Shown one piece after another: positions 9,647-24,607 of a DNA stretch of 25,625 nt. This stretch comes from a virus (Duplodnaviria; Heunggongvirae; Uroviricota; Caudoviricetes), in IMG/VR virus record IMGVR_UViG_2531839476_000020; one strand, 5' to 3'. The notes beneath the pieces are model-generated. The model made no database searches, was not told where the DNA came from, and saw nothing but the letters and a program-made list of their open reading frames with translations. Numbering within the stretch: position 1 is the first letter of the stretch; every line of letters begins with the position of its first letter. Made by a program: the position numbers and the translations under genes.

Positions 9647-9743
9647 ATAAAAACGTACTACTTCCCTAGTACACATGAGGAGTTGGGTCAGTTGGTTGCC
9701 AACCTGAACAGGCACCTTTAAGCCTGCTTCTGTTCGGGTACCT

Positions 9744-10052
9744 TTAAACCCGAAACAGTGAGGAGCGCGATTGCGATCCAGCCAGGGGAGGTTCGGCTGT
9801 ATACCCCTGTAAAGCTCTGCCCTGATTTCTTACAAACAGGCGGAGCCTTGTGTTTGCTTCGTGCCTTGCTCTGTTCTCCTTGCGGAATGAAACAGGCTCA
9901 GCGTCAAAAGTGATTTCGTATACCTCCGCATATTTCAGGGCAACCTTCCGTCTCAGTGACGGAGGCAGCCCCTGTAACTGCTGCTGAATCCACTCTTCGT
10001 CTGCCTGGCAGTACCTAGATGGCATCTCTGTCTGAACGTAATTCTGGGACAT
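9744..10052 (-). CDS. hypothetical protein, 102 aa, downstream of cro-like gene (cII-position ORF)
   Basis: ORF overlapping the cro-like 3' end by 38 nt; no recognisable motif and a low-complexity C-terminal tail. Confidence 0.35.
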   Translation of the reverse strand: MSQNYVQTEMPSRYCQADEEWIQQQLQGLPPSLRRKVALKYAEVYEITFDAEPVSFRKENRARHEANTRLRLFVRNQGRALQGYTAEPPLAGSQSRSSLFRV

Positions 10053-10302
10053 ACAAGCCCTTCACCTCCCCCGTGCGCGCTAAGCTTGGATGTGGAAAAA
10101 GCTCTGGTAGGTCTGGCCGAAATTCATACGCTTGGATCTTTCCGTCGACAGCTGCAACCAATAACGGCACAAATTCTGGTGAAATCTTGTTCTTGCAGTT
10201 CAACCAATCGCAGACTGTTGACTGGGCCTTTCCGCATCGCTTGGCTAAGGCTTGCTGACTTCCAAGAATCTCAATAGCTTTCTCTATGGCTTTATGTTTC
10301 AT
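10015..10302 (-). CDS. Cro-like HTH regulator
   Basis: Start chosen at MKHKAIEKAIEILGSQQALAKRCGKAQSTVCDWLN (RBS AGGAG 7 nt upstream). HTH motif present; divergent from the cI-like gene. Confidence 0.65.
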   Translation of the reverse strand: MKHKAIEKAIEILGSQQALAKRCGKAQSTVCDWLNCKNKISPEFVPLLVAAVDGKIQAYEFRPDLPELFPHPSLARTGEVKGLYVPELRSDRDAI

Positions 10303-10324
10303 AATCGCATCTCCTATTGAACGC

Positions 10325-10353
10325 ATAATAACAACAGGAAAAGCGATATTCAA
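10325..10353 (-). promoter_or_regulatory. PR-like sigma70 promoter for the cro-like/early-right operon
   Basis: Minus strand TTGAAT (10353-10348), 17-nt spacer, TATTAT (10330-10325), about 25 nt upstream of the cro-like RBS. Confidence 0.5.
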
Positions 10354-10367
10354 CGTTAAACATAGAA

Positions 10368-10389
10368 TATTTATCGGAAAGCCGATAAA
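10368..10389. promoter_or_regulatory. operator-like palindrome between cro-like and cI-like genes
   Basis: TTTATCGG-AAAG-CCGATAAA perfect 8-bp inverted repeat in the divergent promoter region. Confidence 0.5.
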
Positions 10390-10421
10390 CTAGCCAAGAT
10401 AGAGAGGGGAGGAAAATCGCA

Positions 10422-11114
10422 ATGACATTTTCAGAACGACTTGATTTAGCTATGCGCAACGCAAAATTTACGCAAGGTAGGCTGGCCAAAGAAGTGGGTA
10501 TGGCTCAGTCCAGTGTTAATCAACTACTTAACAAAGCCAACGGTTCCAGAAAAACAGTCGAAATAGCAAAAGTTTTGGGCGTTAACCCGGAATGGCTCGC
10601 ATCGGGTGTTGGCCCAATGGAAATCGTGACCTCTGCAGACTCACACCAAATACGTAACATTTCTGAAGATTGGGTTACTGATTCGTATGTCGTGGATGTT
10701 TTAGACATCAGATATAGTTGCGGACCTGGTAGTTATAACTCTGATTTTCCTGATATTGTCAGATCTATAGCGATAGAACCAGGATACGCATCAAGAGTTT
10801 TTGGCGGCAGACCAGCATCAGCAATCAAAGCAATAAACGCCCACGGCGACAGTATGAAAGGCACAATAGACCCTGAAGACTTGGTATTTGTAGATGTATC
10901 AGTTCGCACATTTAATGGTGATGGTATATACGCCTTTACATACTCTGGAACATCGCACATCAAAAGACTTCAAAAAATCAAAGATACTCTAACGGTGATA
11001 TCTGACAACCCAGCTTACAAGGATTGGGCTATCGAACCGGAAGACTTCGAACAACTTCACATTGACGGAAAAGTAATTGTCAGTTGGCCTATGACACTAC
11101 ACCGTTTTGCATAA
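10422..11114 (+). CDS. CI-type prophage repressor (N-terminal HTH + C-terminal S24/LexA-like peptidase)
   Basis: 230 aa; HTH LAKEVGMAQSSVNQLL; C-terminal GDSM serine motif and downstream Lys typical of autocleaving repressors; RBS GGAGG. Confidence 0.9.
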   Translation: MTFSERLDLAMRNAKFTQGRLAKEVGMAQSSVNQLLNKANGSRKTVEIAKVLGVNPEWLASGVGPMEIVTSADSHQIRNISEDWVTDSYVVDVLDIRYSCGPGSYNSDFPDIVRSIAIEPGYASRVFGGRPASAIKAINAHGDSMKGTIDPEDLVFVDVSVRTFNGDGIYAFTYSGTSHIKRLQKIKDTLTVISDNPAYKDWAIEPEDFEQLHIDGKVIVSWPMTLHRFA

Positions 11115-11132
11115 GCAAAAATCATTTAACCC

Positions 11133-11158
11133 GCCCACTCTTAAGTGGGCTTTTTTTT
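11133..11158 (+). terminator. intrinsic terminator after the cI-like gene
   Basis: GCCCACT-CTTA-AGTGGGC hairpin followed by TTTTTTTT. Confidence 0.6.
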
Positions 11159-11179
11159 GGGAAAAAATCGATAAACCGA

Positions 11180-11208
11180 TTGACAGGTGAAATCGGTAAA
11201 CCTATTAT
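11180..11208 (+). promoter_or_regulatory. PL-like sigma70 promoter with flanking operator-type inverted repeat
   Basis: TTGACA (11180-11185), 17-nt spacer, TATTAT (11203-11208). ACCGAT ... ATCGGT arms bracket the -35 and share the CCGAT/ATCGG motif with the operator at 10368-10389. Confidence 0.55.
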
Positions 11209-11257
11209 CTTGACATAGGTATCGAACTCACCAAAGCAATTATAGAGGATGAGAAAA

Positions 11258-11668
11258 ATGTCATCGTATATGGGATTACCAACAAATCAGCACGATGCTC
11301 TTGAGAATATTCAGCTCTTAGTAGGGACTGGTGCACTACTGTATAGCAGCAATAACCCTGAGTTAATTGAACTTGCCAGCTCCATCCTGGCTGTAACTCA
11401 AAAATATAGCCTCACCGCGTCACGTTTATGCAAACAAAATTTAGCTATTAATTCCCAGAATCGGATTCGCACCCAACGCGAAACCTGCGGCTTAACAACC
11501 GCCGAACTCGCTAGGCTGCTCGATCTCGATGAAGAAATTATCATCCAGTGGGAGAGCGGAGAGTACGAACCAACCATCAGCATGCTTATCCCTCTGGCTA
11601 ATGTTCTTGGCTGTGATCCAATGTTGTTATTGACTGATGCTTATAAACAAAATCAGGAGGAAGCATAA
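11258..11668 (+). CDS. HTH (XRE-family) domain protein, first gene of the PL-like operon
   Basis: C-terminal TQRETCGLTTAELARLLDLDEEIIIQWESGEYEPTISMLIPLANVLG is an XRE-type HTH; RBS AGAGGA upstream of the second ATG. Confidence 0.65.
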   Translation: MSSYMGLPTNQHDALENIQLLVGTGALLYSSNNPELIELASSILAVTQKYSLTASRLCKQNLAINSQNRIRTQRETCGLTTAELARLLDLDEEIIIQWESGEYEPTISMLIPLANVLGCDPMLLLTDAYKQNQEEA

Positions 11669-11669
11669 G

Positions 11670-11861
11670 ATGAAAATGTTCAAAGGCCTTACCAACGAAC
11701 CGGAGACAACTTTTCATCACATTGCCGTACTGCTTGAAGCGGGGTTAATCATTTCGGCTTCCGGTGATGAAGAATGTGATGAACTTTCGGATGATATCTT
11801 TTTACTGGCACAACAATACGCCAGAAGCGCATGCGATGCATTTAAGGAGCAAAGAACATGA
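11670..11861 (+). CDS. hypothetical acidic small protein (64 aa)
   Basis: RBS AGGAGG before ATG at 11670; tightly packed with neighbours. Confidence 0.5.
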   Translation: MKMFKGLTNEPETTFHHIAVLLEAGLIISASGDEECDELSDDIFLLAQQYARSACDAFKEQRT

Positions 11862-12049
11862 AAACTCCATTAAATATTCTTGAGGAAGTGGCAGCACAAA
11901 TAAAAGAGAATACATCAATGCTTGAATTTATATTTAAGAATTCGCCCGACTCAGGAGAGACAGACGATTATTTATGTTGCCTCATTCGCTCCATGAATAA
12001 AACCTGTGAAATGGCTTACGCGTATATCGACACACTGCGCAACGAATAA
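11858..12049 (+). CDS. hypothetical small protein (63 aa)
   Basis: ATGA start/stop overlap with the previous gene; RBS AAGGAG. Confidence 0.5.
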   Translation: MKTPLNILEEVAAQIKENTSMLEFIFKNSPDSGETDDYLCCLIRSMNKTCEMAYAYIDTLRNE

Positions 12050-12233
12050 AGAAAACTCAATAAACAATCACCCATAAAAACATAACGGTCTCTGGTCGGG
12101 AATTTCCACAACCTGAAAATGGTGGTGATGCATGAAAAACAGAAGTGCTTATAAAACCGCATTATTAATGGCTAATGCAGGATACTGGTCAGTTGCAATA
12201 CTGTTTCTCAGGAAAGCATACGGGAAATAACAA

Positions 12234-12593
12234 ATGACACATGAACCCATTAATACATATCGTCGCCGTATAGCTGTTGCGGCACTCCATCGAATAAAAC
12301 GTAAAACAGGTGGTAATCTGCTTATTGTTGACCTTCCTGATGGGAACATTACGACCATAGAAATAACTGAACAGTTTATAAACCAGTTGCTGTTACGCTT
12401 CGAAGGTATTACCCGTGGTGAATTGGGCCGGGTGGAGGGTGAAACCGAAATCCACACTGCATACCAGAATGCTATCGGGATTAATCAACATACTGAATAC
12501 CTGACTGAAACCGGAAAGTTAATTATAGACAACCTTTTTCAAGAGATTATTGATTACGCGAAAGAAAAATATATCAGCGGAGGAATTAACTGA
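12234..12593 (+). CDS. hypothetical protein (119 aa)
   Basis: ORF coupled (ATGA overlap) to the downstream gene. Confidence 0.5.
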   Translation: MTHEPINTYRRRIAVAALHRIKRKTGGNLLIVDLPDGNITTIEITEQFINQLLLRFEGITRGELGRVEGETEIHTAYQNAIGINQHTEYLTETGKLIIDNLFQEIIDYAKEKYISGGIN

Positions 12594-12808
12594 TGGCTAA
12601 TTTATCCCCTGTATCTGTTGTGCACGAAAAAGTGCAGATCGTTATGACAATTGAAAATGGCCAAGTCACAGGTGTCTGCAAAGTCCGCGATGGCGAGCTG
12701 ATTGCCAGCATGGATACATTCATACGGCTGGCAGAAAGAGCGGGGTATCAGATAACAGCACCTGCTCAGGAGGAAACCGGTGGCATTAACAGCAACACGC
12801 ATTCCTGA
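12593..12808 (+). CDS. hypothetical protein (71 aa)
   Basis: RBS GGAGG; start overlaps the upstream stop. Confidence 0.5.
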   Translation: MANLSPVSVVHEKVQIVMTIENGQVTGVCKVRDGELIASMDTFIRLAERAGYQITAPAQEETGGINSNTHS

Positions 12809-12994
12809 GCGGATCCACCGGCAGGCATTGCAGGTCCTGTTGTTGTACCGATGCCGACGGATATTTCCGCATCGGATACAGCGCACCGGATATCTCAGTC
12901 TGAAGGTTAACCGTCGCTGGCGGCTGTTATCGAAAGACGACGGCCGGAACTGGGAAGTAATGAGTCATGAACGTTATTCGGGAGAAATAAAGAA

Positions 12995-13387
12995 ATGATC
13001 GACAACCGCACCGCCAGCACCATTGACCAGGCATTACAGAAACATGATACACCCGTCGGCCCGTTATTTTTTGTAACACGCCACGGAAGAACAAAAAAAT
13101 GCCTCACCCGAAAAACGGCAATTCGTTACCTGGCATTCTTTATGACCACCCGCGCTTTTGAACGTTCAGGATTCCGACAACGCTATCCTGACAAGCGTTT
13201 TATCTTCAACAGGAATGAGATATGGAAACGTGGAGAATCAACCACAGAGTATACCCGCGCACACCAGCGAACAATCAGACGACTGCGCAGACTCATCGCC
13301 AGGAAACAGTATACAGAAAAATGGTTCAGAAAATATGACACATGGAGCGCCGGATATTACGAACTGATGGCAACAAAACCATTCTGA
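12995..13387 (+). CDS. hypothetical highly basic protein (130 aa)
   Basis: RBS GGGAGA; Arg/Lys-rich, suggesting nucleic-acid binding. Confidence 0.5.
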   Translation: MIDNRTASTIDQALQKHDTPVGPLFFVTRHGRTKKCLTRKTAIRYLAFFMTTRAFERSGFRQRYPDKRFIFNRNEIWKRGESTTEYTRAHQRTIRRLRRLIARKQYTEKWFRKYDTWSAGYYELMATKPF

Positions 13388-13447
13388 CGTAAACGAAATT
13401 AACCATGACGCAATTAAATAAGGCAAGCCGAATACATCAGGAGGACC

Positions 13448-13636
13448 ATGAACATTTATTTCAGAATAGTTATATCACTGGCAATTATCACATGTATTTA
13501 CGGATTAATCGTTCCGGCCCTCATATCAATGAAGGATACGGTAGCAGTGATTTCTGGCTTTGCTCTGGCGTGTCTGACCCCGCCCTGCATTTATGCCATT
13601 TATAAGGGTCTTTCTTTTTCTAAGGATAAAAGATGA
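13448..13636 (+). CDS. small two-helix membrane protein (62 aa), coupled to the SPFH lipoprotein gene
   Basis: RBS AGGAGG; two hydrophobic segments (IVISLAIITCIYGLIVPALI and VISGFALACLTPPCIYAIY); stop overlaps the next start (ATGA). Confidence 0.55.
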   Translation: MNIYFRIVISLAIITCIYGLIVPALISMKDTVAVISGFALACLTPPCIYAIYKGLSFSKDKR

Positions 13637-14460
13637 AAAAATTACTTTTTGCTTTAGCCCTTGTTCTGCCGACCATTGGCCTTGTCGGTTGCGATCGCGT
13701 TGAGCCTGGTAATGTGGGCATCAAAGTAAACAAACTGGGCGACGATAAAGGCGTCGGTGAAGTGGTCGGTGTTGGGCGCTACTGGACGGGATGGAACACT
13801 GAGGTTTACATCTTCCCGACCTTTAAGCAGATGAAGACCTACGATGATCCATTCAGTTTCCAGATGAGTGACGGTACAACCATCGGCTATCACATCGGCG
13901 TGGCCTACAAAGTTGATCCATCCAAAGTTACCACAGTCTTTCAGACCTACCGCAAAGGCGTGGACGACATTACCGACACCGACCTGCGCCAGAAGATAGC
14001 CGACGCACTCAACCGACTGGCCAGCAAAATGACCACCGACAAATTTATCGACGGCGGCAAGTCTGAGCTGCTGGATGCAGCTCTTAAAGACATTCAGGAA
14101 GAAATGACGCCCATCGGTATTCAGGTAATGAGCCTCTCATATGTGGGTAAGCCGGAGTACCCACCTACTGTTATCGACAGCATTAATGCCAAAGTCACGG
14201 CGAACCAGAAAACCCTGCAACGCGAGCAGGAAGTAAAACAGCGCGAAGCGGAAGCCAACATGTTGCGCGCGGAAGCTGCCGGACAGGCAGATGCGATTCG
14301 CACAAAAGCCCAGGCCGAAGCCGATGCTATTCGTTTACGCGGTGAAGCTCTGCGCCAGAACCCCGGTGTTATGGAGCTGGAAGCCATCAACAAGTGGAAC
14401 GGTACACTGCCGCAATACATGACCAGCGGTGCCAACACACCATTTATTCAGGTTAAGTAA
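13633..14460 (+). CDS. SPFH/band-7 (prohibitin-like) domain lipoprotein
   Basis: Lipoprotein signal MKKLLFALALVLPTIGLVGC (lipobox LVGC); SPFH-like core and an Ala/Glu/Arg-rich coiled-coil tail QREQEVKQREAEANMLRAEAAGQADAIRTKAQAEADAIRLRGEALRQ. Confidence 0.75.
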   Translation: MKKLLFALALVLPTIGLVGCDRVEPGNVGIKVNKLGDDKGVGEVVGVGRYWTGWNTEVYIFPTFKQMKTYDDPFSFQMSDGTTIGYHIGVAYKVDPSKVTTVFQTYRKGVDDITDTDLRQKIADALNRLASKMTTDKFIDGGKSELLDAALKDIQEEMTPIGIQVMSLSYVGKPEYPPTVIDSINAKVTANQKTLQREQEVKQREAEANMLRAEAAGQADAIRTKAQAEADAIRLRGEALRQNPGVMELEAINKWNGTLPQYMTSGANTPFIQVK

Positions 14461-14503
14461 TACATATGCCCGGTATTACACGCCGGGCTGTCTGGAGATA
14501 AAA

Positions 14504-15253
14504 ATGAATATTGTAACCATCAACAACAAACAGTTTCCGGTAATCGAATATCGCGGTCAGCGTGTTGTGACATTTGCAATAATTGATGACGTCCACCAGC
14601 GCCCGGAAGGTACCGCCCGTGCTGCGTTTAACCGCAACCGTTCTCACTTTATCGAAGGGGTGGATTTTCTTGAAATGACTGCGGACGTAATACGTACGGA
14701 GTCACTTTCTGATGCCTTTGCCGCGCGAACTGCCAAAGGGATCATTCTTTTCGAGTCTGGTTACCTGATGTTGACGAAGCCTTTTAACGATGCTCTTGCA
14801 TGGCAGGTTCAGCGCGAACTGGTTAACAGCTATTTCCGAACTCACGCGCCGCTGACGGAAATGGAGATGATCGCTGCAATGGCCGCCGATGCCGTTCGCC
14901 AGCAGAAGCGCCTGAGTCATGTTGAAGAGAAGATCGAAACGGTCACCAAAGCTGTGGAGAACATCAAACGCGGCACAATGCGCACCGGATATGTCGGTTA
15001 CCGCCAGGTGGTAGCCAAAAGCGGAATGAGTGACGCCAAGTGTCGGAATCTGGTCAACGCCTACCACATCCCTACCGACACGCACGAATTTATGACTCCG
15101 GACGGTCTGTTGTCTCGCAGGGCTGTCGTCGAGCTTGAGACATTTATGGCGGCGTTCCACCAAATGATGTCAGAGGCTGAACCACGCGGCACACGCTGGT
15201 ATCACCCGAAGATGGGGCTTTTTCAGGTAATCGGATGGGAGGATAAAGCATGA
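14504..15253 (+). CDS. ORF6N/KilA-N domain protein (antirepressor-like)
   Basis: Start at MNIVTINNKQFPVIEYRGQRVVTFAIIDDVH (RBS GGAG); N-terminal domain typical of phage ORF6N/KilA-N DNA-binding modules. Confidence 0.65.
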   Translation: MNIVTINNKQFPVIEYRGQRVVTFAIIDDVHQRPEGTARAAFNRNRSHFIEGVDFLEMTADVIRTESLSDAFAARTAKGIILFESGYLMLTKPFNDALAWQVQRELVNSYFRTHAPLTEMEMIAAMAADAVRQQKRLSHVEEKIETVTKAVENIKRGTMRTGYVGYRQVVAKSGMSDAKCRNLVNAYHIPTDTHEFMTPDGLLSRRAVVELETFMAAFHQMMSEAEPRGTRWYHPKMGLFQVIGWEDKA

Positions 15254-15818
15254 TCATCCAGTCAAAACTTATTCGCGCCGCTCTGGTGTGCGCTGCTAAA
15301 AACGACGTTCGTTATTACCTGAACGGTCTTCACATCACGCCAAAACATATTGAGGCAACCAATGGTTTCGTAGCACTGCGCATGACTCACGGCATCCGGA
15401 CGAAGAAAAACATCATTGTCCAGTTCGAAGGTGGCGTCCCGGCCAAAGCCGAAACGACAGAGCTGATTTTTAGTAAAGAGCCGATCCTGTTCATCGCGAC
15501 CAGTTTCAGCGCCGGCTGTCCATTACCGGCATTAAATTGGTGGACGGTTGTTTTCCGGATTTGGAACGCATCATTCCGAAAAAATTTGACCTCTGTACAC
15601 ACCCGGTGATCCAGGCGGGTTACCTGAGTTATCCAGAGAAGATGTTTGGTCGTGAGCGTAAATTTATTCCCGTCCAGTTACGTTCCTCCGGTGACGGGCA
15701 AGCGGTCAGAATTCAGTTTGATTCCATCATCAACTCAATGTATGGCAATCCTGAATTTGTTGTGATGCCTTGTCGTGATCATGGCGATTTCAATGTGGCT
15801 CAGGAGCATCCGGAATGA
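15250..15818 (+). CDS. DnaN (beta sliding clamp) domain II-III-like protein, apparently split by a 1-nt frameshift near 15505-15512
   Basis: NDVRYYLNGLHI...ATNGFVALRM parallels DnaN QDVRYYLNGMLFE...TDGHRLA. The second frame ITGIKLVDGCFPDLERIIPKK parallels FTSKLVDGRFPDYRRVLPK, and the C-terminal EFVVMPCR parallels AYVVMPMR. Junction is at GCCGGCTGTCC. Confidence 0.5.
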
Positions 15819-15941
15819 AAATCGAATACCAGGACGCCGCAGGAGGTGAATCAATGAGCTGGCCTGATGCAATCGTAACTCTGGGGGTGGTATTCGCAGT
15901 AGCGTTTGTTGTGTTCTCAATTTGTCGATGGGGATAACCAC

Positions 15942-16184
15942 ATGTTCGCTTTGATTCAACGCGGTCAGATATACACGGACAGAGCCGGATACCCCGTGGT
16001 GATTACTCGCATCACTGAGCACTCAGTGTTCTTTCGACGGATGGACGGACGATCCGGGCGGGTACGCATTGGTGAGTTAAACTGCCTGTTCGAACATATT
16101 GACCACCAGGAGTACCGCAAAATTCTCGCGGACACTGAGCAGGAAAAGCACCTGAAAAAATTACGAGCCATAAAAAGGAAGTAA
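15942..16184 (+). CDS. hypothetical protein (about 80 aa)
   Basis: Start moved to MFALIQRGQIYTD; sits in the xis-proximal region. Confidence 0.45.
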   Translation: MFALIQRGQIYTDRAGYPVVITRITEHSVFFRRMDGRSGRVRIGELNCLFEHIDHQEYRKILADTEQEKHLKKLRAIKRK

Positions 16185-16186
16185 AG

Positions 16187-16336
16187 AATGAATAAAGCAT
16201 TTGAACAATGGGTCCACCAGCGTTACGGCAATCGCTATGACCTGACGCGAGATGTTGACGGCTTCTACTGTCGTGAAGTTGTGAAGCGAATGTTTGACGT
16301 GTGGTGCCACTGCCGTGGGCTGAGTGTTATGTGAGG
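16187..16336 (+). CDS. hypothetical small Cys-rich protein (49 aa), below the ORF-track length cutoff
   Basis: ATG at 16187 with RBS AAGGAAG; MNKAFEQWVHQRYGNRYDLTRDVDGFYCREVVKRMFDVWCHCRGLSVM. Confidence 0.3.
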
Positions 16337-16342
16337 TGATGT

Positions 16343-16552
16343 ATGGGGCTGGATTGCGTGCCTATATCAACCTACTGCCGCGACGCGGGAGAAACGGTTG
16401 ATGCCGTTAACAAACGGATACAAAGAGGAATATGGAAAGAAGGGGTTCATGTATTAAAAGTCGACGGAGTTAAAGAACGCTGGGTCGACTTAATAGAGGT
16501 TTCAAAATGGGCAAGAAAGAACAAGGATTATTATCTCTGCCAAGAGGAGTAA
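16343..16552 (+). CDS. excisionase-like protein
   Basis: 69-aa ORF immediately upstream of, and overlapping, the integrase gene, as in xis-int pairs. Confidence 0.55.
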   Translation: MGLDCVPISTYCRDAGETVDAVNKRIQRGIWKEGVHVLKVDGVKERWVDLIEVSKWARKNKDYYLCQEE

Positions 16553-17685
16553 CTATTCGTAAGCATAAAACTGCTTCAACACTAGTTATCACTTTCACAT
16601 ATAAAGGGGTTCTTTGCAGGGAGCCCCTGTCTCGGCTTGAGGCAAATACACGTGGTATTAAATATGCTGAGCGCCTGCTAGGGGAGATACAAAATCAGAT
16701 CGCCAGCGGAACGTTTGAATATGCGAAATATTTCCCCAGTTCCAAAAAACTGGAGTTATTCGGTGTAGTAAAGAAAACCAAAAATATTAAGTCCTATCTT
16801 GATGAATACCTGAAAATTTGCATGAACCGCAATCTGTCGCCGTCAACCATTGGCGGTTACGAAAAATGTCTATCAGCACTATCAGAACTACATAAACTAC
16901 ATGTAACAGAATTGACGCCTGCGGTACTAAAAAATTGGATAGCCAGCCGAAAAACTAAGCTGAAAACAATCAGGAATAACCTGTCATTTCTGCGCAGCGC
17001 CATTGATGAGGCTGTAACTGATGGCCTGTTGACTATTAACCCGGTAACTCTTGTCAGCGCCAGCCGGTATCACGTGGTCGACAGTAAACCGAACGCCGAC
17101 GATTACGAAGTTGATCCGTTTGCGCCTGCGGAAACCAGTGCCATATATCAGCACTGCAAGTATCAGGAATGGCAGAATCTGTTCCGCTTCGCCTTCAATA
17201 CAGGGCTACGCAGCTCTGAGCTATGCGCATTACGTTGGACCGATATCGACTTTATAGGTAATACAGCGCACATACAGGCGGCCAGTGTCGTAGGGGTACT
17301 TAAAGGCACCAAGACAAAAGCCGGTACCCGTAAGGTGGAGCTGAACAGTGAGGCGCTGGCGGCCCTGCAGGCGCAGAAGCAATACACCTTTATGAAAAGT
17401 GAGTTCATATTCAGCGATCCGAAAACGGGAGATCCCTGGACGAACGCCGACGCTATCCGTAAAAAAGCATGGGTGCCGACCCTGAAAAAAGCTGGTGTGC
17501 GCTACCGTAACCCGTACCAGACGCGCCACACATTCGCCACCAGACACATTAGCCAGGGTGTAAACCTTTTCTGGCTTGCCGGGCAGATGGGGCATAAGGG
17601 GCCGGAAATGCTGTTCCGCAATTACGGTAAATACCTGGCTGAATACGACGGGAAAACCGCAATGGAATCTGGAATGAAGAAGTGA
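16507..17685 (+). CDS. tyrosine site-specific recombinase (lambdoid prophage integrase)
   Basis: 392 aa; the C-terminal region carries the conserved residues of the tyrosine recombinase catalytic set (Arg in FNTGLRSSEL, His-x-x-Arg in TRHTFATRH, His in MGHKG, Tyr in LFRNYGKYL); N-terminal arm-type DNA-binding region. Confidence 0.9.
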   Translation: MGKKEQGLLSLPRGVTIRKHKTASTLVITFTYKGVLCREPLSRLEANTRGIKYAERLLGEIQNQIASGTFEYAKYFPSSKKLELFGVVKKTKNIKSYLDEYLKICMNRNLSPSTIGGYEKCLSALSELHKLHVTELTPAVLKNWIASRKTKLKTIRNNLSFLRSAIDEAVTDGLLTINPVTLVSASRYHVVDSKPNADDYEVDPFAPAETSAIYQHCKYQEWQNLFRFAFNTGLRSSELCALRWTDIDFIGNTAHIQAASVVGVLKGTKTKAGTRKVELNSEALAALQAQKQYTFMKSEFIFSDPKTGDPWTNADAIRKKAWVPTLKKAGVRYRNPYQTRHTFATRHISQGVNLFWLAGQMGHKGPEMLFRNYGKYLAEYDGKTAMESGMKK

Positions 17686-17697
17686 TTTGAAGAAAAA

Positions 17698-17721
17698 ACC
17701 CGGCAAATGCCGGGTCTTTTT
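17698..17721. terminator. bidirectional intrinsic terminator between convergent int and cargo genes
   Basis: CCCGGC-AAAT-GCCGGG hairpin flanked by AAAAAA upstream and TCTTTTT downstream. Confidence 0.65.
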
Positions 17722-17726
17722 GATGG

Positions 17727-18494
17727 TTATTCTGTCGCGCCACCTATCGAAACATAATCATGAAATTGATCGTCAATGAGTCGGTCCTTACAGATAACAT
17801 GTACAATGTGACGACAACAGTTTTCATCATCATACGCACGACCCCAGCGAACAATCTCATCTACAGACAGATCATTCGCACTCCATGGCAAAGTACCTGA
17901 AACGCCACGCGCACCTGGACCAAGTATGTCCATAAATTTCTTCGTGCGTGAATTGTAGATCCGTACCTCGGCAATTCGAATGATGCTACTAGCCCAAAGA
18001 GCACCACCGGCAATACTTTGAATGTTATCGCAGATGAGAAACTCATGCTTTCGCGCAAGCATTTTATAGATCTCACGCGCCAAACCTGCTGATTGGAAAT
18101 CCTGTGCGATAACAGCGCTTTTCACTTGCTTTCCGGTCATCATCTGACCGTTCTCTTCGATAAAATTAAAGTCGTTGAACTGTATACGACCTATTCTTAT
18201 CGTTTTGTTATCGTCTACCATATCAAGACCCAAGAGGGTATTGACCAGATCCTGCATTGGAACCTTCGAATCAAGAAGGTCACTGCCATAGTCTAAAAAA
18301 AAGTCGTCGGTGGAACATCCCAGTTGATACACATCCAAGTAGTACTGAAACTCACCAGAACTGACAATGTACTCATCAGCCCTCAGTAAGCCAGCCTCGG
18401 CAGTGAAAAAATAGAATGACTCAATAAGACGTTTTTCGCCAAATGGCGTAATGTTCAAGTCCTTGTTATATGAAGGTATTAACGCAGGAGCCAT
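17727..18494 (-). CDS. hypothetical protein (255 aa), second gene of an int-to-att cargo operon
   Basis: Long ORF convergent with int, 11 nt downstream of the 113-aa gene; no recognisable catalytic motif. Confidence 0.6.
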   Translation of the reverse strand: MAPALIPSYNKDLNITPFGEKRLIESFYFFTAEAGLLRADEYIVSSGEFQYYLDVYQLGCSTDDFFLDYGSDLLDSKVPMQDLVNTLLGLDMVDDNKTIRIGRIQFNDFNFIEENGQMMTGKQVKSAVIAQDFQSAGLAREIYKMLARKHEFLICDNIQSIAGGALWASSIIRIAEVRIYNSRTKKFMDILGPGARGVSGTLPWSANDLSVDEIVRWGRAYDDENCCRHIVHVICKDRLIDDQFHDYVSIGGATE

Positions 18495-18505
18495 TCAGCA
18501 ACCTT

Positions 18506-18847
18506 TTAATGGTAGTTAATTTCCCTGTAGTTCTTCTGCATGTATAGAGCAATTGCCGCTTCAATTTTCTTCAGCAGATTACTGCTTACATACTGAGGAT
18601 ACTGATCTGCTGGCTTCACAACATAGCGCAATTTTTCTTTGTTCATGGCGATCTCAGCGAACGGGATCACGTCACCGTCACGAACCTCATTGTTCAATGT
18701 CACAATAAACAGCTGACGTGCCGGGGAGACACGATCACTCAGTCTTCTCACGAAGAACTCGTTTGCTGTGTTTGAGTCAACAAAAGAACTGACGAGTTGA
18801 GTCCGACGCTCAATCGTCTGTATCGATCTTCTCGCTACTGTTCTCAT
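18506..18847 (-). CDS. hypothetical protein (113 aa), first gene of an int-to-att cargo operon
   Basis: RBS GAGGAG 6 nt upstream of the ATG; preceded by a structured leader. Confidence 0.55.
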   Translation of the reverse strand: MRTVARRSIQTIERRTQLVSSFVDSNTANEFFVRRLSDRVSPARQLFIVTLNNEVRDGDVIPFAEIAMNKEKLRYVVKPADQYPQYVSSNLLKKIEAAIALYMQKNYREINYH

Positions 18848-18886
18848 GCTAGTCTCCTCAACACTTCACTGGCTGTGCAGTGAAGG

Positions 18887-18924
18887 TACAAAAAGCCACT
18901 GATGATAACAGCGTCATCAGTGGC
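18887..18924 (-). terminator. terminator-like hairpin inside the leader of the 113/255-aa operon (possible attenuator)
   Basis: 11-bp stem GCCACTGATGA/TCATCAGTGGC followed on the minus strand by TTTTTG; a second 8-bp hairpin CTTCACTG/CAGTGAAG (18864-18885) lies between it and the RBS. Confidence 0.45.
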
Positions 18925-19176
18925 CCTTGATGGTGATAACCGCAGTTACCTAAATAGTATGATATTACCTTACGGGTAATTCTTCAACGATTGCTCTGAA
19001 TTGAATAGTCTTGAAGTGCTATGAACAGCACAAAACAGCGCTAATCACCGCCCCAGTGGCGCCTAAACACTTCAAAATGTTGGACAGAATCAGGACGTTA
19101 GAGGTACTACAATATGCACGTAAAATGCACGTGAGGTATTTTAAATTAGAAAAATCATTAATATTCAATTGGTTAA

Positions 19177-19217
19177 GAATTTTTCGGATACGGGTTCAAC
19201 TCCCGCCAGCTCCACCA
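19177..19217 (+). other. ssrA: 3' fragment of ssrA (tmRNA) ending in CCA; att core shared by the prophage right end and the P4-type island left end
   Basis: GAATTTTTCGGATACGGGTTCAACTCCCGCCAGCTCCACCA matches my recollection of the E. coli tmRNA 3' end (T-arm, acceptor stem, CCA). No matching 5' acceptor strand or tmRNA body lies upstream. Confidence 0.7.
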
Positions 19218-19382
19218 CTTTTTAGTTGTTTGAAGTTCAATGAAGTCTACTAAGCCCACACAGCACAAGCTCTGCGGGCTTTTTTACGTCTATTGTCGTC
19301 CAGTGAGAATTGCTGAGAACTACGAGTTATGGCACCCTGAATGGGACCCACTAAGAAGGGTCCAAAAACCGAGGGTCCCAAA

Positions 19383-20612
19383 ATGGCAAAAATCGCTAAG
19401 AAGCTCACTGACACTGAAATCAAAAGCACCAAGCCAGCCGATAAAGAAATCAACTTGTTTGACGGTGATGGTCTGATTCTACGAATCGCTCCTTTGGCGA
19501 AAGGAGGCAAGAAAAATTGGTATTTCAGGTATGCAGTACCAGTGAGCAAGAAAAGAACCAAAATGAGCCTTGGGACATATCCTCACCTTACCCTTGCAAG
19601 AGCCAGAGCCTTACGTGATGAATATCTCTCCTTTCTGGCAAATGGTGTTGATCCCCAAATCCATAACAACGATAAGGCGAAGGCATTAAAGAGTGCTACT
19701 GAGCACACTCTCCAAGCCGTAGCGCGGAAATGGTTAGATGAGAAGGTAAAGACATCAGGTATCTCACAAGACCATGCAGCAGACATCTGGCGCAGCTTAG
19801 AGAGAAATGTCTTTCCCGGTCTGGGTAATGTCCCTATCAATGAGATCCGACCTAAGCTCTTAAAACAACACCTTGATCCTATTGAGCAACGAGGCGTATT
19901 GGAAACTCTACGCCGTATCATTTCACGTCTGAATGAAATCTTCCGGTGGGCAGCTACTGAAGAACTTATTGAGTTCAACCCGGCTGACAACCTTGGTCAA
20001 AGATTCAGTAAACCAAAAAAGCAAAATATGCCTGCCCTTCCCCCAAGCGAATTGCCAAGGTTTATGGAATCTTTGACGAATGCGTCAATCCGGTTGGAAA
20101 CACGTATGCTAATTGAATGGCAATTGTTGACATGGGTTCGTCCGGGTGAAGCCGTTCGCGCAAGGTGGTCTGATATTGATACAACCAACAGCATTTGGAA
20201 CATTCCTGCTGATTTCATGAAAATGAAAAAGCTTCACAAAGTTCCTTTGAGTAAAGAAGCTTTGCGCATCCTTGAATTAATGAAATCAATAAGTGGGCAT
20301 AGAGAATGGGTTTTCCCCAGCATAAAAGCGCCTCTTAATCATATGCATGAACAAACAGCCAACGCAGCTATCATCCGAATGGGGTTCGGAGGCGAGCTTG
20401 TAGCTCACGGTATGCGTTCTATTGCACGAACAGCGGCAGAGGAGTCTGGTAAATTCAGAGCTGAAGTTCTTGAGGCAGCGCTTGCCCACTCGAAAAAAGA
20501 TGAAATTATCGCAGCATACAATCGTGCAGAATATCTGATAGAGCGACAGAGTTTGATGCAATGGTGGAGTGATTACGTTCAAGCTCAAAGATCAAATGCT
20601 CTGGTAGCCTAA
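19383..20612 (+). CDS. P4-type tyrosine integrase (IntA-like)
   Basis: Start at MAKIAKKLTDTEIKSTKPADKEINLFDGDGLILRI, the typical P4-family integrase N-terminus; C-terminal AHGMRSIARTAAEESG and catalytic Tyr region; lies directly 3' of the ssrA fragment. Confidence 0.9.
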   Translation: MAKIAKKLTDTEIKSTKPADKEINLFDGDGLILRIAPLAKGGKKNWYFRYAVPVSKKRTKMSLGTYPHLTLARARALRDEYLSFLANGVDPQIHNNDKAKALKSATEHTLQAVARKWLDEKVKTSGISQDHAADIWRSLERNVFPGLGNVPINEIRPKLLKQHLDPIEQRGVLETLRRIISRLNEIFRWAATEELIEFNPADNLGQRFSKPKKQNMPALPPSELPRFMESLTNASIRLETRMLIEWQLLTWVRPGEAVRARWSDIDTTNSIWNIPADFMKMKKLHKVPLSKEALRILELMKSISGHREWVFPSIKAPLNHMHEQTANAAIIRMGFGGELVAHGMRSIARTAAEESGKFRAEVLEAALAHSKKDEIIAAYNRAEYLIERQSLMQWWSDYVQAQRSNALVA

Positions 20613-21138
20613 GTATCAGAATAGCTAATATAATCCTGAAGGTAAAGAAAATGGAAACCCTATTCAAAGTTTTTGAAAAATTTAGTTCCAGACCACTTTT
20701 TTTTATTTTTTTCGGACTCTCACTTTGTGAATTTTTTCAGAAACAATCTGTTCTGATGAATCCATCAGCAGATAACATCGCGAAATTATTCGCAGCCATG
20801 ATATTAGTTGTTTTTTTACTTGGGGATTTGAATGGCTAATCTTCAAGTTCAATGTAAACCTTGAACCTCATGATCAAGGCGATATTGGACCAACAATTGG
20901 AACGGCTACTTTAGCTGTATACTTAGTTTATGCCTTTCACTTTCTCAGTGAAAATCCTGAAGCATTAAATTTAAAGTTATTAACTAACTCTGGCTTTATA
21001 TACAGCACAACTCTATTATTATTCTCATTAGAATGCATGAAGCTTAGAAGACTTAAACAAAAATAAACAACATCATTGTGATGATAAATATAAAATAGGC
21101 ATGGCGAAAAAAAAATCACCACGCCTAAAATATAATAA

Positions 21139-22887
21139 TTATGGTAGCATCATTGATACATAATCCACACCAATCCTTGAGCTATACTGAGACGCTATAG
21201 CCTGATATCTTTCTGCATAACCAGTTCTCAGTTGAGATTTAAGTTTGAGTCGGACAGGAACATTTTGCACGTTGCCATCCATATTACTTAAAAACACGGC
21301 AGAAATAATATTTTTTTCTTCGCCATCAACTGTTGTTCCATGATTCAACACCACCATATAATCAACAACAGGAAGCGTTTTATCCCCTTCGAAAATAGAG
21401 AGATATTTTCTTTGATTTTTATGCATTACATATATATATTTCGAATGTTCAGCAAATGGCAATGCTTTACTCTGACTGGCGTTAAAAAGCTCCAGAACTT
21501 TAATGAGCCTGTGCGGACTTAATCTTACATGGTGAGGGTCGTTACCCTGAGTAGGAACCAAATCACATGCCGCAGATACACATAAATACCATTTGTTCGA
21601 CTCTGTATCAAAGAAAATAGTGCCAGTAGAAATATGACCATCTTCAAAATTCTTTGAAGACAAATTCATATTTAAAGCATGATACATTTCGTGATAAGTA
21701 TCATTATTTGATGGCAGATCCATTTTTGAAGAGCAATATTGGAGCAATGCAGCAACTCCGCTGTTAGCGTATTCATTTGAATAGCTATCAAAAACACTTT
21801 TGATAAATTCATCCAGCGTATTATTATTTTTAAGTCTTTGATAAAGCTCTTCTGATAAATTACCAAATACAAAGTCAATATTTCTACATCTAATATCAGG
21901 CGAGTCTGATTTTAATATCTCATTTAACCACGCAGCTTGACCGTAATGATCGTTAGCCAAATGATTTACAAAAGATAAAGCCTCAGCTTCGATTGCATTC
22001 TGAATTTCAGATTTTATTAACTGATAATAAGATGGTTTCCATTCAATGAGAGAATCATTGAGAGTTTGCCAAATCCTATCTCCATCGTTTTCATGATCAT
22101 CTTGAACCTTATGAAATAGGGAGACAAAGATATTACCACATTGAATCCATTTTACTCCGCTTTCATCACCCCGAATGACATTGCCAGATGTGTTGCTAGA
22201 AATAATTGCATTTCTAGACACAGCATATTCTGCAATCATTTTTGCAATGAAGTTTTTATCCTTTTGTTCCTCCAACACAGCATCATCATGTATTAATCTT
22301 TTAATTCTTCTACAAGGCTTACTGTCTTTAATATAGGCTATTGTTTCATCTCTTGTGAGAGCTTTATTACCATTATCATTTAAGTTCGGTAATACAACGT
22401 CTTCCCAATAACTTTGGACATCTTCATTATCGTAGTCAATGATCAAGCTGTTGATATCCAGAGCACCTTTGAGAGTCGATGATATCTGCATCCAAACCGT
22501 TTCTAAATTCTCTCTAGTATATATTACAATCATATTTAAATGATCGGAGTCTTTCAAATCTTGTAATAGTTTAAGTGTTTTATCAGGTGCATTATTATCA
22601 AGATGATAATCTACAATAATAAGATCTGATTTTCTAATCCGATCCACATCGAAATTAACAGAACCATTGTCAACATCACAAATCATATTTTTAGATTGAA
22701 AAAAGCTCTCAAGAGTAGCGGCTCGTTTAGATGAGTCAATTTTGTTGTAGTCTAAATCAACTTCGTTATTCAACGCCCTGATTGATTCAGAATACGTCAG
22801 AAAATCGTCATCAATCATGACAACGGAACGAATTGCATTTTCGCAGAAAGTTTTCTGGACAAGAGAATTATAATTTGCCACTGTCAT
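21139..22887 (-). CDS. receiver (REC) domain protein with an uncharacterised ~450-aa C-terminal domain; candidate effector of a two-component-like module
   Basis: N-terminus has REC hallmarks: acidic pair VVMIDDD, putative phospho-acceptor Asp in DLIIVDYHLD, conserved Thr in NMIVIYT. The rest has no motif I can name. Start assigned to the second ATG (22887), preceded by TGGAG and abutting the kinase stop (TAATATG). Confidence 0.75.
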   Translation of the reverse strand: MTVANYNSLVQKTFCENAIRSVVMIDDDFLTYSESIRALNNEVDLDYNKIDSSKRAATLESFFQSKNMICDVDNGSVNFDVDRIRKSDLIIVDYHLDNNAPDKTLKLLQDLKDSDHLNMIVIYTRENLETVWMQISSTLKGALDINSLIIDYDNEDVQSYWEDVVLPNLNDNGNKALTRDETIAYIKDSKPCRRIKRLIHDDAVLEEQKDKNFIAKMIAEYAVSRNAIISSNTSGNVIRGDESGVKWIQCGNIFVSLFHKVQDDHENDGDRIWQTLNDSLIEWKPSYYQLIKSEIQNAIEAEALSFVNHLANDHYGQAAWLNEILKSDSPDIRCRNIDFVFGNLSEELYQRLKNNNTLDEFIKSVFDSYSNEYANSGVAALLQYCSSKMDLPSNNDTYHEMYHALNMNLSSKNFEDGHISTGTIFFDTESNKWYLCVSAACDLVPTQGNDPHHVRLSPHRLIKVLELFNASQSKALPFAEHSKYIYVMHKNQRKYLSIFEGDKTLPVVDYMVVLNHGTTVDGEEKNIISAVFLSNMDGNVQNVPVRLKLKSQLRTGYAERYQAIASQYSSRIGVDYVSMMLP

Positions 22888-22888
22888 A

Positions 22889-24607
22889 TTAGAACTCCAC
22901 TCCATTGAACTGGATCACAAAATTAGCGCCATCTTTTATTAAATAGTTATCGCCTTCATCAGGTTCTGAATACCATATTTTATGATGTGCAACAGCAAGG
23001 TTTTCTCGACATAGATACAGACCTACCCCATGTCCATTTGCTCTTTTGCTATAAAATAGTTCAAATAGTCGCGGGATATCATCGGTATCAATTGCCGGAC
23101 CAGAATTTGCTATGATAACCAAAGAATTCACAAAACCAATCTTTATGAGCCTATTATTTGACAGACTGACCCAATACATTGCATTGTTGATAATATTAGT
23201 AAAAACAGGATAGATCCTTGATGGTATATCTGTTATTGCGATTTGCTTAAACTCTTCACTAAATTCAATAGTTATTCGTTGCCGTTCGAAACGCTCCCCA
23301 AAGAACTTCAGGACATAATCCATGATATTTTTTCCAGTTATTCTCTGCCTGGATTGATAACCTGATATTTTCAAAGGTGATAAGAAACGTATTTGTTGAG
23401 TAAGCGATCTGTGAGCATTTAACGCCAATGAAAAACCAGGGTGTTCTTTTACAGAAGTAGGAAGAGAGTTTAGTCCTCTGGTTACCATAGAATCCATTTC
23501 TTCAAGTTCATGAGATATTATCTCAACACTAATACCTAACTGTGCAAGCGCGTTTAAACTTTTAGCTTTTTCTTCAAAATATGAGCGTTCTTCTTCAGAT
23601 AATGAGAATGCTGAATCTAAGTTTATACCTTCAAATAATCTATCGAGACCTTTTATTATTGATTGATATTTGAAAGTTAGGGTATCAACTGACTCAACAT
23701 ATAAACTATCGAGCAAATTAAACACATTTTCAATTTGTGAATCATTATCTATTGAATCAACAACTGATATAGTTTTAGCATAATAATCACTTCGATCAAC
23801 CTTTATTTCATCGGCCCATTTTTTTAAAAGAGAATGTATCTTCTCCTCTATCGTGTTATTAAACTTAGTTAGTTTAGAATTAATAATACCTTGATTTTTT
23901 TCAAGGTGATTTTTCGCTGACAATGAAGGCTCAAGTTTATTTAATTCAGAATCAAGTTTATTAATTGCTAACTTCATTTGTAGAATATACGCAGAGAACT
24001 CATTAAATTTATCTCTGTAGTCTCTATATTTCTCTTCATACATTCCAAGTTTTGGAGGTTTGATAGGCGTTTTAATTTCACTGCGCAACGCATCTAAGTT
24101 TGTAAGATCACTGTCTATAATTTTAAGATAGTTTAAATCTAACGAACCATCAGTTTTATCAAGCTTAGTTTTCAGCCTTTTAACAGCCTCCAAGGAAGCA
24201 TCAAGAACTGGTGTCTGATTCTTCAAAGCTTCTGAAAAACTTTTTTGTGTTGATTTTCGAGCTTGTTGTTGAGCAGATTTTCTTAACTCTTTTTCACGCT
24301 TAACTTGTTCTAAAAGCTCTTTACGGTCATCAGAACGTGAACCAAAAAATCTATCAGCAAGTTCAGTTAACAAATTAGATATAATAGTTTTCAGTTCTCT
24401 TGCAGCCTGGTTTCTTATGAATCCCTCTCTCCCCGACTTATCTTTCAGCTCTTTATTACTGGATTGAGTAATTCCAATATAACCAAAAATCCTTCTATTA
24501 GACCAATAATATCGCCCTGCATTCCATGAACGTCTTTCTTCTATCTGGAAGAAATCATTATCTACTCGACCATAAGGTAATACTCTCAAGCTATCCCTAA
24601 AAATCAT
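22889..24607 (-). CDS. cytoplasmic histidine-kinase-like protein (HisKA H-box + HATPase_c), probably 5'-truncated by IS3
   Basis: H-box ISVEIISHELEEMDS; N-box IYPVFTNIINNAMYW; G1 IIANSGPAIDTDDIPRLFELFYSK; G2 GHGVGLYLCRENL. No transmembrane segment and a long coiled-coil middle. The frame stays open for 41 codons upstream of the ATG at 24607, up to the IS3 terminus at 24729. Confidence 0.75.
   Translation of the reverse strand: MIFRDSLRVLPYGRVDNDFFQIEERRSWNAGRYYWSNRRIFGYIGITQSSNKELKDKSGREGFIRNQAARELKTIISNLLTELADRFFGSRSDDRKELLEQVKREKELRKSAQQQARKSTQKSFSEALKNQTPVLDASLEAVKRLKTKLDKTDGSLDLNYLKIIDSDLTNLDALRSEIKTPIKPPKLGMYEEKYRDYRDKFNEFSAYILQMKLAINKLDSELNKLEPSLSAKNHLEKNQGIINSKLTKFNNTIEEKIHSLLKKWADEIKVDRSDYYAKTISVVDSIDNDSQIENVFNLLDSLYVESVDTLTFKYQSIIKGLDRLFEGINLDSAFSLSEEERSYFEEKAKSLNALAQLGISVEIISHELEEMDSMVTRGLNSLPTSVKEHPGFSLALNAHRSLTQQIRFLSPLKISGYQSRQRITGKNIMDYVLKFFGERFERQRITIEFSEEFKQIAITDIPSRIYPVFTNIINNAMYWVSLSNNRLIKIGFVNSLVIIANSGPAIDTDDIPRLFELFYSKRANGHGVGLYLCRENLAVAHHKIWYSEPDEGDNYLIKDGANFVIQFNGVEF

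Follow-up and report, generated by a model that had tools for sequence, protein, structure and literature searches.

The 25,625-nt stretch of Caudoviricetes DNA recorded in IMG/VR as IMGVR_UViG_2531839476_000020 (hereafter the window) contains, at positions 18848–18990 of the minus strand, a structured leader that a preliminary description had singled out because a terminator appeared to lie between its promoter and the first start codon of a cargo operon. Downstream of the leader are two minus-strand genes, the first encoding a protein of 113 amino acids (18506–18847; PHROG 2594, partial GNAT-like fold) and the second a protein of 255 amino acids (17727–18494; PHROG 3307, GNAT-like fold). This two-gene cassette sits between the tyrosine integrase gene int (16507–17685, plus strand) and attR, at the right end of a lambdoid prophage whose integration site is ssrA. 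The analysis indicates that a self-contained prophage moron has its 5′ control region at 18848–18990, a region conserved among homologous loci and hitherto unannotated.

Promoter scanning identified a candidate sigma70 promoter on the minus strand, with the −35 hexamer TTGAAG (18982–18987) and the −10 hexamer TATCAT (18959–18964) separated by a 17-nt spacer and matching the consensus at 9 of 12 positions. Assuming the usual spacing of 6–8 nt after the −10 hexamer, the transcription start is predicted at about 18951–18953. It is followed by P1 (GGTAAC-TGCG-GTTATC, 18935–18950), recognised by folding and comparison as a potential hairpin at the 5′ end of the RNA and/or a palindrome in the DNA where transcription starts. 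A linker predicted by folding to be single-stranded (ACCATCAAGG, 18925–18934) leads into an intrinsic terminator (18888–18924) consisting of an 11-bp stem, an 8-nt loop and the U-run TTTTTGT (18894–18888) directly after the stem. The two terminator arms, GCCACTGATGA (18924–18914) and TCATCAGTGGC (18905–18895), are 100% complementary, 6 of the 11 pairs are G-C, and the hairpin has a calculated stability of −19.4 kcal/mol. Between the U-run and the ATG are 40 nt, occupied by a second hairpin (hairpin 2, 18864–18885, found by folding, with an 8-bp stem and a 6-nt loop) and the Shine–Dalgarno (SD) sequence. The arms of hairpin 2, CTTCACTG (18885–18878) and CAGTGAAG (18871–18864), are likewise 100% complementary, and 4 nt (18863–18860) separate it from the SD sequence GAGGAG (18859–18854), which together with the ATG (18847–18845) makes up the translation start of the 113-amino acid gene (18845–18859). 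The promoter at 18987–18959, the 11-bp hairpin with its U-run, the second 8-bp hairpin at 18885–18864, and the ribosome-binding site GAGGAG and start of the 113-amino acid gene had all been claimed in the preliminary description and were confirmed, as was the position of the terminator between promoter and start codon, by its coordinates and by the conserved order described below.

The stability of the hairpins in the transcript context, on which the preliminary description had made its reading depend, was borne out by folding the 116-nt leader as a whole: P1 and both hairpins formed, with a minimum free energy of −40 kcal/mol (z = −3.1; 1 of 200 shuffled sequences was as good). Established terminator rules imply that the terminator should be efficient, given its 11-bp stem, G+C-rich base and five to eight U. 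A terminator on the plus strand was ruled out, the plus-strand copy being followed by CCCTTGATGG and lacking a U-run; the hairpin should therefore act on the minus strand only. No second promoter-like site was found by promoter scanning of either strand of 17500–20800. Given this result and the gap of only 40 nt between U-run and ATG, all transcription of the operon must cross the terminator.

Homologous loci were obtained from scans of viral, metagenome and genome collections and from three contig look-ups, giving about 55 loci, among which about 30 different upstream sequences were represented. The 113-amino acid protein was represented by about 35 homologue clusters in Enterobacterales and the 255-amino acid protein by about 30, and the proteins were 49–100% identical across approximately 30 distinct leaders sharing the same architecture. 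Within the upstream 150 nt the order TTGnnn-17-TAnnnT, start-site palindrome, hairpin plus U-run, SD sequence and ATG was near-invariant. The two genes always occurred together, separated by 9–12 nt, and were followed by a 3′ terminator in 22 of 25 loci. The cassette was present in prophages of Escherichia, Citrobacter, Yersinia, Pantoea, Serratia and Atlantibacter, and its surroundings were of at least four kinds: it lay between int and the attachment site, after major tail or tail-chaperone genes, in a myovirus baseplate cluster, and downstream of a Q-type gene in Serratia odorifera. In most same-strand contexts there was no other terminator between the upstream gene and the promoter of the module. 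In the Serratia locus (L063, 1028–2842) a Q-type antiterminator gene (PF03589) precedes the cassette by about 690 bp, and the gap contains several terminator-like hairpins and an apparent tRNA 3′ half (GGTTCGAGACC...CCA). Neither BLAST searches of Escherichia coli genomes nor a degenerate motif scan of viral contigs found the leader in front of other genes; a portable cassette serving other genes was thus ruled out, this operon being the sole companion of the leader in these searches. The leader shows the same degree of conservation where int or an attachment site is lacking, and on that account integrase arm sites and a sib-like retroregulator of int were rejected too.

The terminator was present in 22–23 of 29 distinct leaders, its stem ending 42–52 nt before the ATG. 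Four T columns immediately 3′ of the stem were invariant in one alignment (A4), and most other lineages had 5–8 T. A covariance model of the terminator (R1) gave exactly one strong match per locus, at 31–50 bits. Covariation was measured on a model-based alignment of 18 distinct sequences, a MAFFT realignment having misplaced the arms. Pairing was maintained in 81.8% of stem cells compared with 72.9% in shuffles, and 5 of the 11 pairs changed on both sides. Double changes occupied 20 cells where 6.6 were expected, a number reached in none of 500 shuffles, and the covariation score was 0.376 compared with at most 0.156 when the partners were slid, indicating that the stem proposed in the preliminary description covaries across homologues. 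Between the window and the clade of L026, L029 and L030, the segment from P1 through the linker to the terminator was 70–76% identical, compared with 37–40% at codon third positions, 46–48% in the promoter and 52–60% in the segment of hairpin 2 and the SD sequence. As its identity exceeds that of codon third positions, the leader is therefore under selection, partly at the level of sequence; the linker was among the parts conserved between these two clades.

Taken alone, the promoter signal of the window was not significant, one promoter-like site being found in 17500–20800 against 5.6 expected, with a local P of 0.035. Among 14 clade representatives, however, nine had a TTG-initial best match scoring at least 7, against about 1.3 expected (chance about 0.09 per clade), an approximately sevenfold excess. 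The spacer measured 17 nt in all nine promoter-bearing clades except L017 (18 nt), and 92–122 nt separated the end of the −10 hexamer from the ATG in their representatives. The spacer of the window is filled by an operator-like palindrome, ATTACC-N5-GGTAAT (18964–18980, minus strand), and spacers were palindromic in most clades, with a sequence specific to the clade (ATTACC..GGTAAT, TATAGC..GCTATA, TTGCTCA..TGAGCAA). Palindromic spacer or start-site regions were seen in L045, L047, L028, L020 and L026, and the spacer palindrome of L017 resembles a SlyA/RovA-type box. Both palindromes were also sought elsewhere in the window as potential operators of a prophage regulator. The spacer-palindrome pattern matched the window seven times with at most 2 mismatches, against 1.1 expected and with none of 100 shuffles reaching seven, and the leader site was the only perfect match of the seven; the P1 pattern matched three times against 0.8 expected. 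P1 was kept in the form GATAAC-N3-4-GTTATC in most clades, appeared as a compensatory variant (ACAACC/GGTTGT) in L025, L027 and L048, and was retained in L017 and L018, both of which are without the terminator. In L028, L045 and L047 the second palindrome begins 4–5 nt after the −10 hexamer and so would be only partly transcribed, which favours a DNA operator in these loci. The spacer palindrome and the start-site palindrome hint at repression as a further, independent level of control.

Hairpin 2 was less uniform. Within the clade of the window one pair changed from C-G to U-A in a compensatory manner (L004, L016 and L031). Outside this clade its sequence and position differed, and in some clades the fold covered the SD sequence. 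As a universal element it was ruled out, since across clades it was usually present but not significant (mean z −0.54); by this comparison it is a feature at the level of the clade only.

The preliminary description had read the terminator as a sign of conditional read-through and had looked to alternative antiterminator folds of the leader as a check. In the clade of the window an alternative helix can be drawn that pairs P1 and its flank with the terminator 5′ arm and loop, reaching −15.7 kcal/mol compared with −26.2 kcal/mol for P1 plus terminator. This helix goes back to a 13-nt direct repeat (GCNGTTATCAYCA, minus strand, 18900–18912 and 18931–18943, 31-nt spacing), by which the 3′ half of P1 resembles the terminator loop and 3′ arm, and it is confined to this clade. 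As a conserved feature an antiterminator fold was ruled out, as pairing of upstream sequence with the 5′ arm was no better than in dinucleotide shuffles in 15 of 16 leaders; the cost of blocking the terminator was 6–17 kcal/mol. A candidate upstream open reading frame (uORF) of 19 codons (18858–18917, minus strand) has its ATG inside the terminator 5′ arm and its TGA stop overlapping the SD sequence. It was present in the clade of the window and in L026, L029 and L030, was cut to 3 codons in L031 and was missing from the clades of L019, L025, L023, L045 and L032; its peptide was not conserved and its frame relative to the stem differed among clades. A leader-peptide attenuator of the trp/his type was rejected, the uORF being clade-specific, truncated in L031 and without a conserved product. 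A search of the minus strand of 18700–19300 against Rfam 15 returned no match at E values up to 10, the only matches being ssrA-related and on the other strand. The leader showed no pairing with the translation start of either gene (z approximately 0), and Tandem Repeats Finder detected no tandem repeats in 18800–19250 at a score of at least 30. The claim of conditional read-through thus stands in one part, in that the terminator must be crossed by read-through, but the antiterminator, leader-peptide, Rfam and pairing tests revealed no switch. With no recognisable RNA switch in the leader, any regulated read-through therefore needs a factor acting in trans.

The cargo proteins matched no family in Pfam, NCBIfam, PADLOC or PDB sequence searches and no defence or toxin model, and PHROGs 2594 and 3307 are both of unknown function. 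AlphaFold models built from family alignments had confidence values (pLDDT) of 77 and 74. The model of the 113-amino acid protein consists of a helix, five strands and a helix and resembles the N-terminal part of HAT1 and RimL; that of the 255-amino acid protein is GNAT-like with an extra N-terminal domain, and its sequence carries a Q-x-x-G-x-A motif (QSAGLA). The most conserved part of the 113-amino acid protein is MRTxARRSxQTI, the N-terminus MRT(V/L)ARRS being invariant in 21 homologues. On these models the pair may represent a split or two-subunit acetyltransferase. In phage PhiR12_5 (L002, PV340554.1, 4128–4894) the 255-amino acid gene is annotated as two open reading frames of approximately 164 and 66 amino acids, in DNA that is 99.3% identical; the split annotation in the deposited PhiR12 records suggests a frameshift or stop codon in those phages.

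The window represents E. coli DNA. Its segment 17600–19400 is 99.9% identical to strain O103:H2 PV16-126 and was present in only 10 of 5426 complete E. coli genomes. The attR core is a 3′ fragment of ssrA, the gene for transfer-messenger RNA (19126–19217, plus strand; E value 1.7e-5 with the corresponding model), with which the element ends, about 140 nt (18988–19125) upstream of the −35 hexamer of the leader promoter; in PV16-126 a complete ssrA lies at the opposite end of the prophage. Beyond attR and the ssrA terminator (19126–19300) there is a second, P4-type integrase gene belonging to a neighbouring island (19341–20612, plus strand), and two elements therefore lie in tandem at ssrA. A partial match to Rfam IsrM at 19208–19285 (53 bits, where 376 are needed) is probably sequence flanking ssrA. 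Two overlapping genes of the neighbouring island (21139–24607, minus strand) encode Response_reg_2 (PF19192) and HATPase_c domains and have no PADLOC match. At the other end of the cassette, a bidirectional terminator (17693–17716) is common to the cargo operon on the minus strand and int on the plus strand, its hairpin (ACCCGGCAnnTGCCGGGT) having T-runs on both strands. The left part of the prophage in the window (1–16500, including the type of Q and the replication genes) does not align with the PV16-126 prophage (L001). The two share the end comprising int, cargo and attR but not the left part, so this end module is one that mosaic phages have in common. Within the left part, a gene for a lambda-type Q antiterminator (5454–5855, minus strand) is followed by a match to STnc100 (4732–4904, minus strand, 108 bits), the only Rfam match in the window at gathering score, in the position of the short late-leader RNA of PR′-tR′. 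The Q gene lies immediately before this match and a SASA/NanS-p-like esterase gene (2741–4594, minus strand) after it; this is the place that StxS occupies in Shiga toxin (Stx) phages. The Q gene and late-leader RNA are on the strand of the cargo leader, and late transcription would therefore be expected to approach the leader across attP after excision.

For the function of the leader, we give about an even chance to a terminator that is off by default, keeping basal expression low and yielding a leader RNA of approximately 63 nt. According to this model, RNA synthesis would start from the sigma70 promoter at about 18951, and the first 16 nt would fold as P1. About 45 nt further on, RNA polymerase would reach the strong intrinsic terminator with its 11-bp stem and five U, and most transcripts would stop by default at 18888–18892. 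In the resulting RNA of about 63 nt, a 10-nt linker would join a 5′-terminal hairpin to the terminator hairpin, and a U tail would follow. A minority of transcripts would read through hairpin 2 and the SD sequence into the two genes, providing a low basal level, and the terminator would at the same time shield the genes from read-in by upstream phage or host transcription. Higher expression would depend on a factor acting in trans, for example a Q- or N-modified polymerase or a protein recognising the conserved P1 and linker; high expression could plausibly be reached through a phage polymerase that resists terminators.

Several points weigh against this default-off model. The start site, the efficiency of termination, the read-through and the default-off state itself are all predicted from sequence. 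L017 and L018 lack the terminator, L024 shows a degenerate U-tract and L052 none, and in all four the genes are intact; the terminator is therefore dispensable in some backgrounds, and a tight off state, such as the preliminary description envisaged for a product that must stay off until triggered, is not obligatory. In addition, the conservation of P1 and linker sequence goes beyond what a passive terminator needs and hints at a specific binding partner, and hence at regulated control or a functional RNA. The order of promoter and then terminator would be odd for a pure insulator.

That last reading, in which the hairpin serves mainly to stop read-in from the late operon or from host DNA across attR, the promoter is weak or non-functional and expression comes only from a terminator-resistant late polymerase, is quite unlikely in our view. 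It would account for the hairpin being the first terminator after the upstream gene in most same-strand contexts, for a late operon on the same strand that would reach the leader across attP, and for the position of the Serratia module downstream of a Q-type gene. It sits poorly with the recurrence of the TTG-17-TAnnnT element about sevenfold above chance at a fixed distance and with a promoter that travels with the module in all contexts; moreover, the Serratia locus keeps the leader terminator in spite of several further terminators between Q and the module. The conservation of P1 and linker in sequence, and not in structure alone, could point to factor-dependent antitermination, in which a protein (the 113-amino acid product or a host or phage factor) would bind nascent P1 and linker and either block the terminator or render polymerase resistant, in analogy to N/boxB, LoaP or BglG-type systems. 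The persistence of P1 in L017 and L018 is consistent with such a role, as is a terminator without a built-in competing fold, which would place regulation in trans, and the basic, invariant helix at the N-terminus of the 113-amino acid protein (MRTxARRSxQTI), its most conserved part, could be read in the same way. Yet the cargo proteins model as GNAT-like and not as known RNA-binding antiterminators, the P1 loops vary (UGCG, CGCA, CCAAGG, CGUG), and the second palindrome of L028, L045 and L047, which would be only partly transcribed, fits a DNA operator better, so that we consider antitermination of this kind doubtful.

Selection on the leader could also reflect a function of the terminated RNA itself, either acting in trans as a small RNA (sRNA) of the Hfq- or ProQ-dependent type or serving the GNAT-like proteins as an antidote or cofactor in a type III-like arrangement, a reading that we regard as unlikely. 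In every context the promoter lies upstream and not downstream of the terminator, the sequence of 5′ hairpin, linker, terminator hairpin and U tail fits an sRNA, and the RNA segment is under purifying selection and linked exclusively to this operon. There is precedent in type III loci, whose definition includes a terminator that separates the RNA from the toxin gene (PMC3401426), and in prematurely terminated RNAs from phage promoters that can function, such as StxS (PMC7547250). Against it stand the lack of a tandem repeat array, proteins that are not ToxN/AbiQ-like and match no PADLOC model, the absence of complementarity to the translation starts of the operon itself, and a linker whose sequence is not conserved in the clades of L019, L023, L025 and L045. 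The more specific proposal, that the RNA of about 63 nt is a dedicated partner (antidote, cofactor or sensor) of both GNAT-like proteins, is very unlikely. Finally, attenuation might be coupled to translation, with a ribosome at the uORF ATG (18917) preventing the hairpin and then stopping on the SD sequence, so that read-through would follow ribosome availability. An AAGGG lies 6 nt before the uORF ATG, and the stop of the 19-codon frame overlaps or abuts the SD sequence in two clades of differing sequence (TGA in the window, TAA in L030, TAG in L029). As such a frame has a chance probability of about 0.1 per lineage, ends early in L026 and shows the truncation, losses, shifting frame and unconserved peptide described above, this coupling appears highly improbable.

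One of the nearest known systems is PR′-tR′ of lambdoid phages (lambda 6S RNA, StxS). It shares with the leader studied here a prophage promoter with an intrinsic terminator no more than about 100 nt beyond it, an arrangement that should yield a short RNA in lysogens and leaves read-through as the sole access to the genes downstream. In Stx phages PR′ is always active and is terminated at tR′ in lysogens, giving the sRNA StxS, and Q enables read-through (PMC7547250). Unlike PR′-qut-tR′, the leader lies 13 kb from Q and beside attR, does not head the late operon, does not match the STnc100 model and is part of a portable moron of two genes; neither a Q-binding element nor a cognate antiterminator was identified for this leader. 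Type III toxin–antitoxin loci (ToxIN, CptIN, TenpIN) consist of a promoter, a short non-coding RNA, a Rho-independent terminator that sets the ratio of RNA to mRNA, and a protein gene (PMC3401426), and the leader shares with them a promoter followed by a terminator before a protein gene. It differs in having no tandem array but a single 13-nt two-copy repeat with 31-nt spacing, in a cargo that models as GNAT-like with no match to endoribonucleases of the ToxN, CptN or TenpN type, and in two protein genes instead of one. Two of the three features that define type III systems fail in this locus. An intrinsic terminator in the 5′ leader before the first start codon is also found in trp and his leaders, T-boxes and riboswitches. 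Unlike classical attenuators and riboswitches, the leader has no competing antiterminator helix above chance, no conserved leader peptide and no Rfam match, and the RNA upstream of its terminator, at about 27 nt, is too short for known riboswitch aptamers. Phage morons, according to Hendrix and co-workers, reportedly carry their own promoter and terminator and are inserted between phage genes. The cassette resembles them in having its own promoter and 3′ terminator and in occupying different sites in different phages, but the second terminator between promoter and genes departs from the usual layout. In comparison with type II toxin–antitoxin systems of the GNAT/RHH type (TacAT, AtaRT), the upstream 113-amino acid protein lacks DUF1778/RHH or any Pfam match and models as a GNAT-like half domain, and the GNAT-like protein has 255 amino acids and an extra N-terminal domain.

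The leader represents a conserved RNA or DNA control element that Rfam does not contain. Its boundaries are clear, a covariance model and about 30 sequence variants describe it, and it is tied to an orphan gene pair. The negative outcome of the switch tests narrows the options, in that regulation, if any, would come from a factor acting in trans. If the RNA were a partner of the cargo proteins, the module would be an RNA-plus-protein toxin–antitoxin or defence system combining type III-like wiring with an acetyltransferase-type effector, a combination of which we know of no description. The leader RNA is also a likely addition to the short RNAs that prophage promoters yield when transcription terminates prematurely; some of these RNAs, such as StxS, regulate host genes. 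The leader thereby offers a handle on when and why prophages express acetyltransferase-like cargo.

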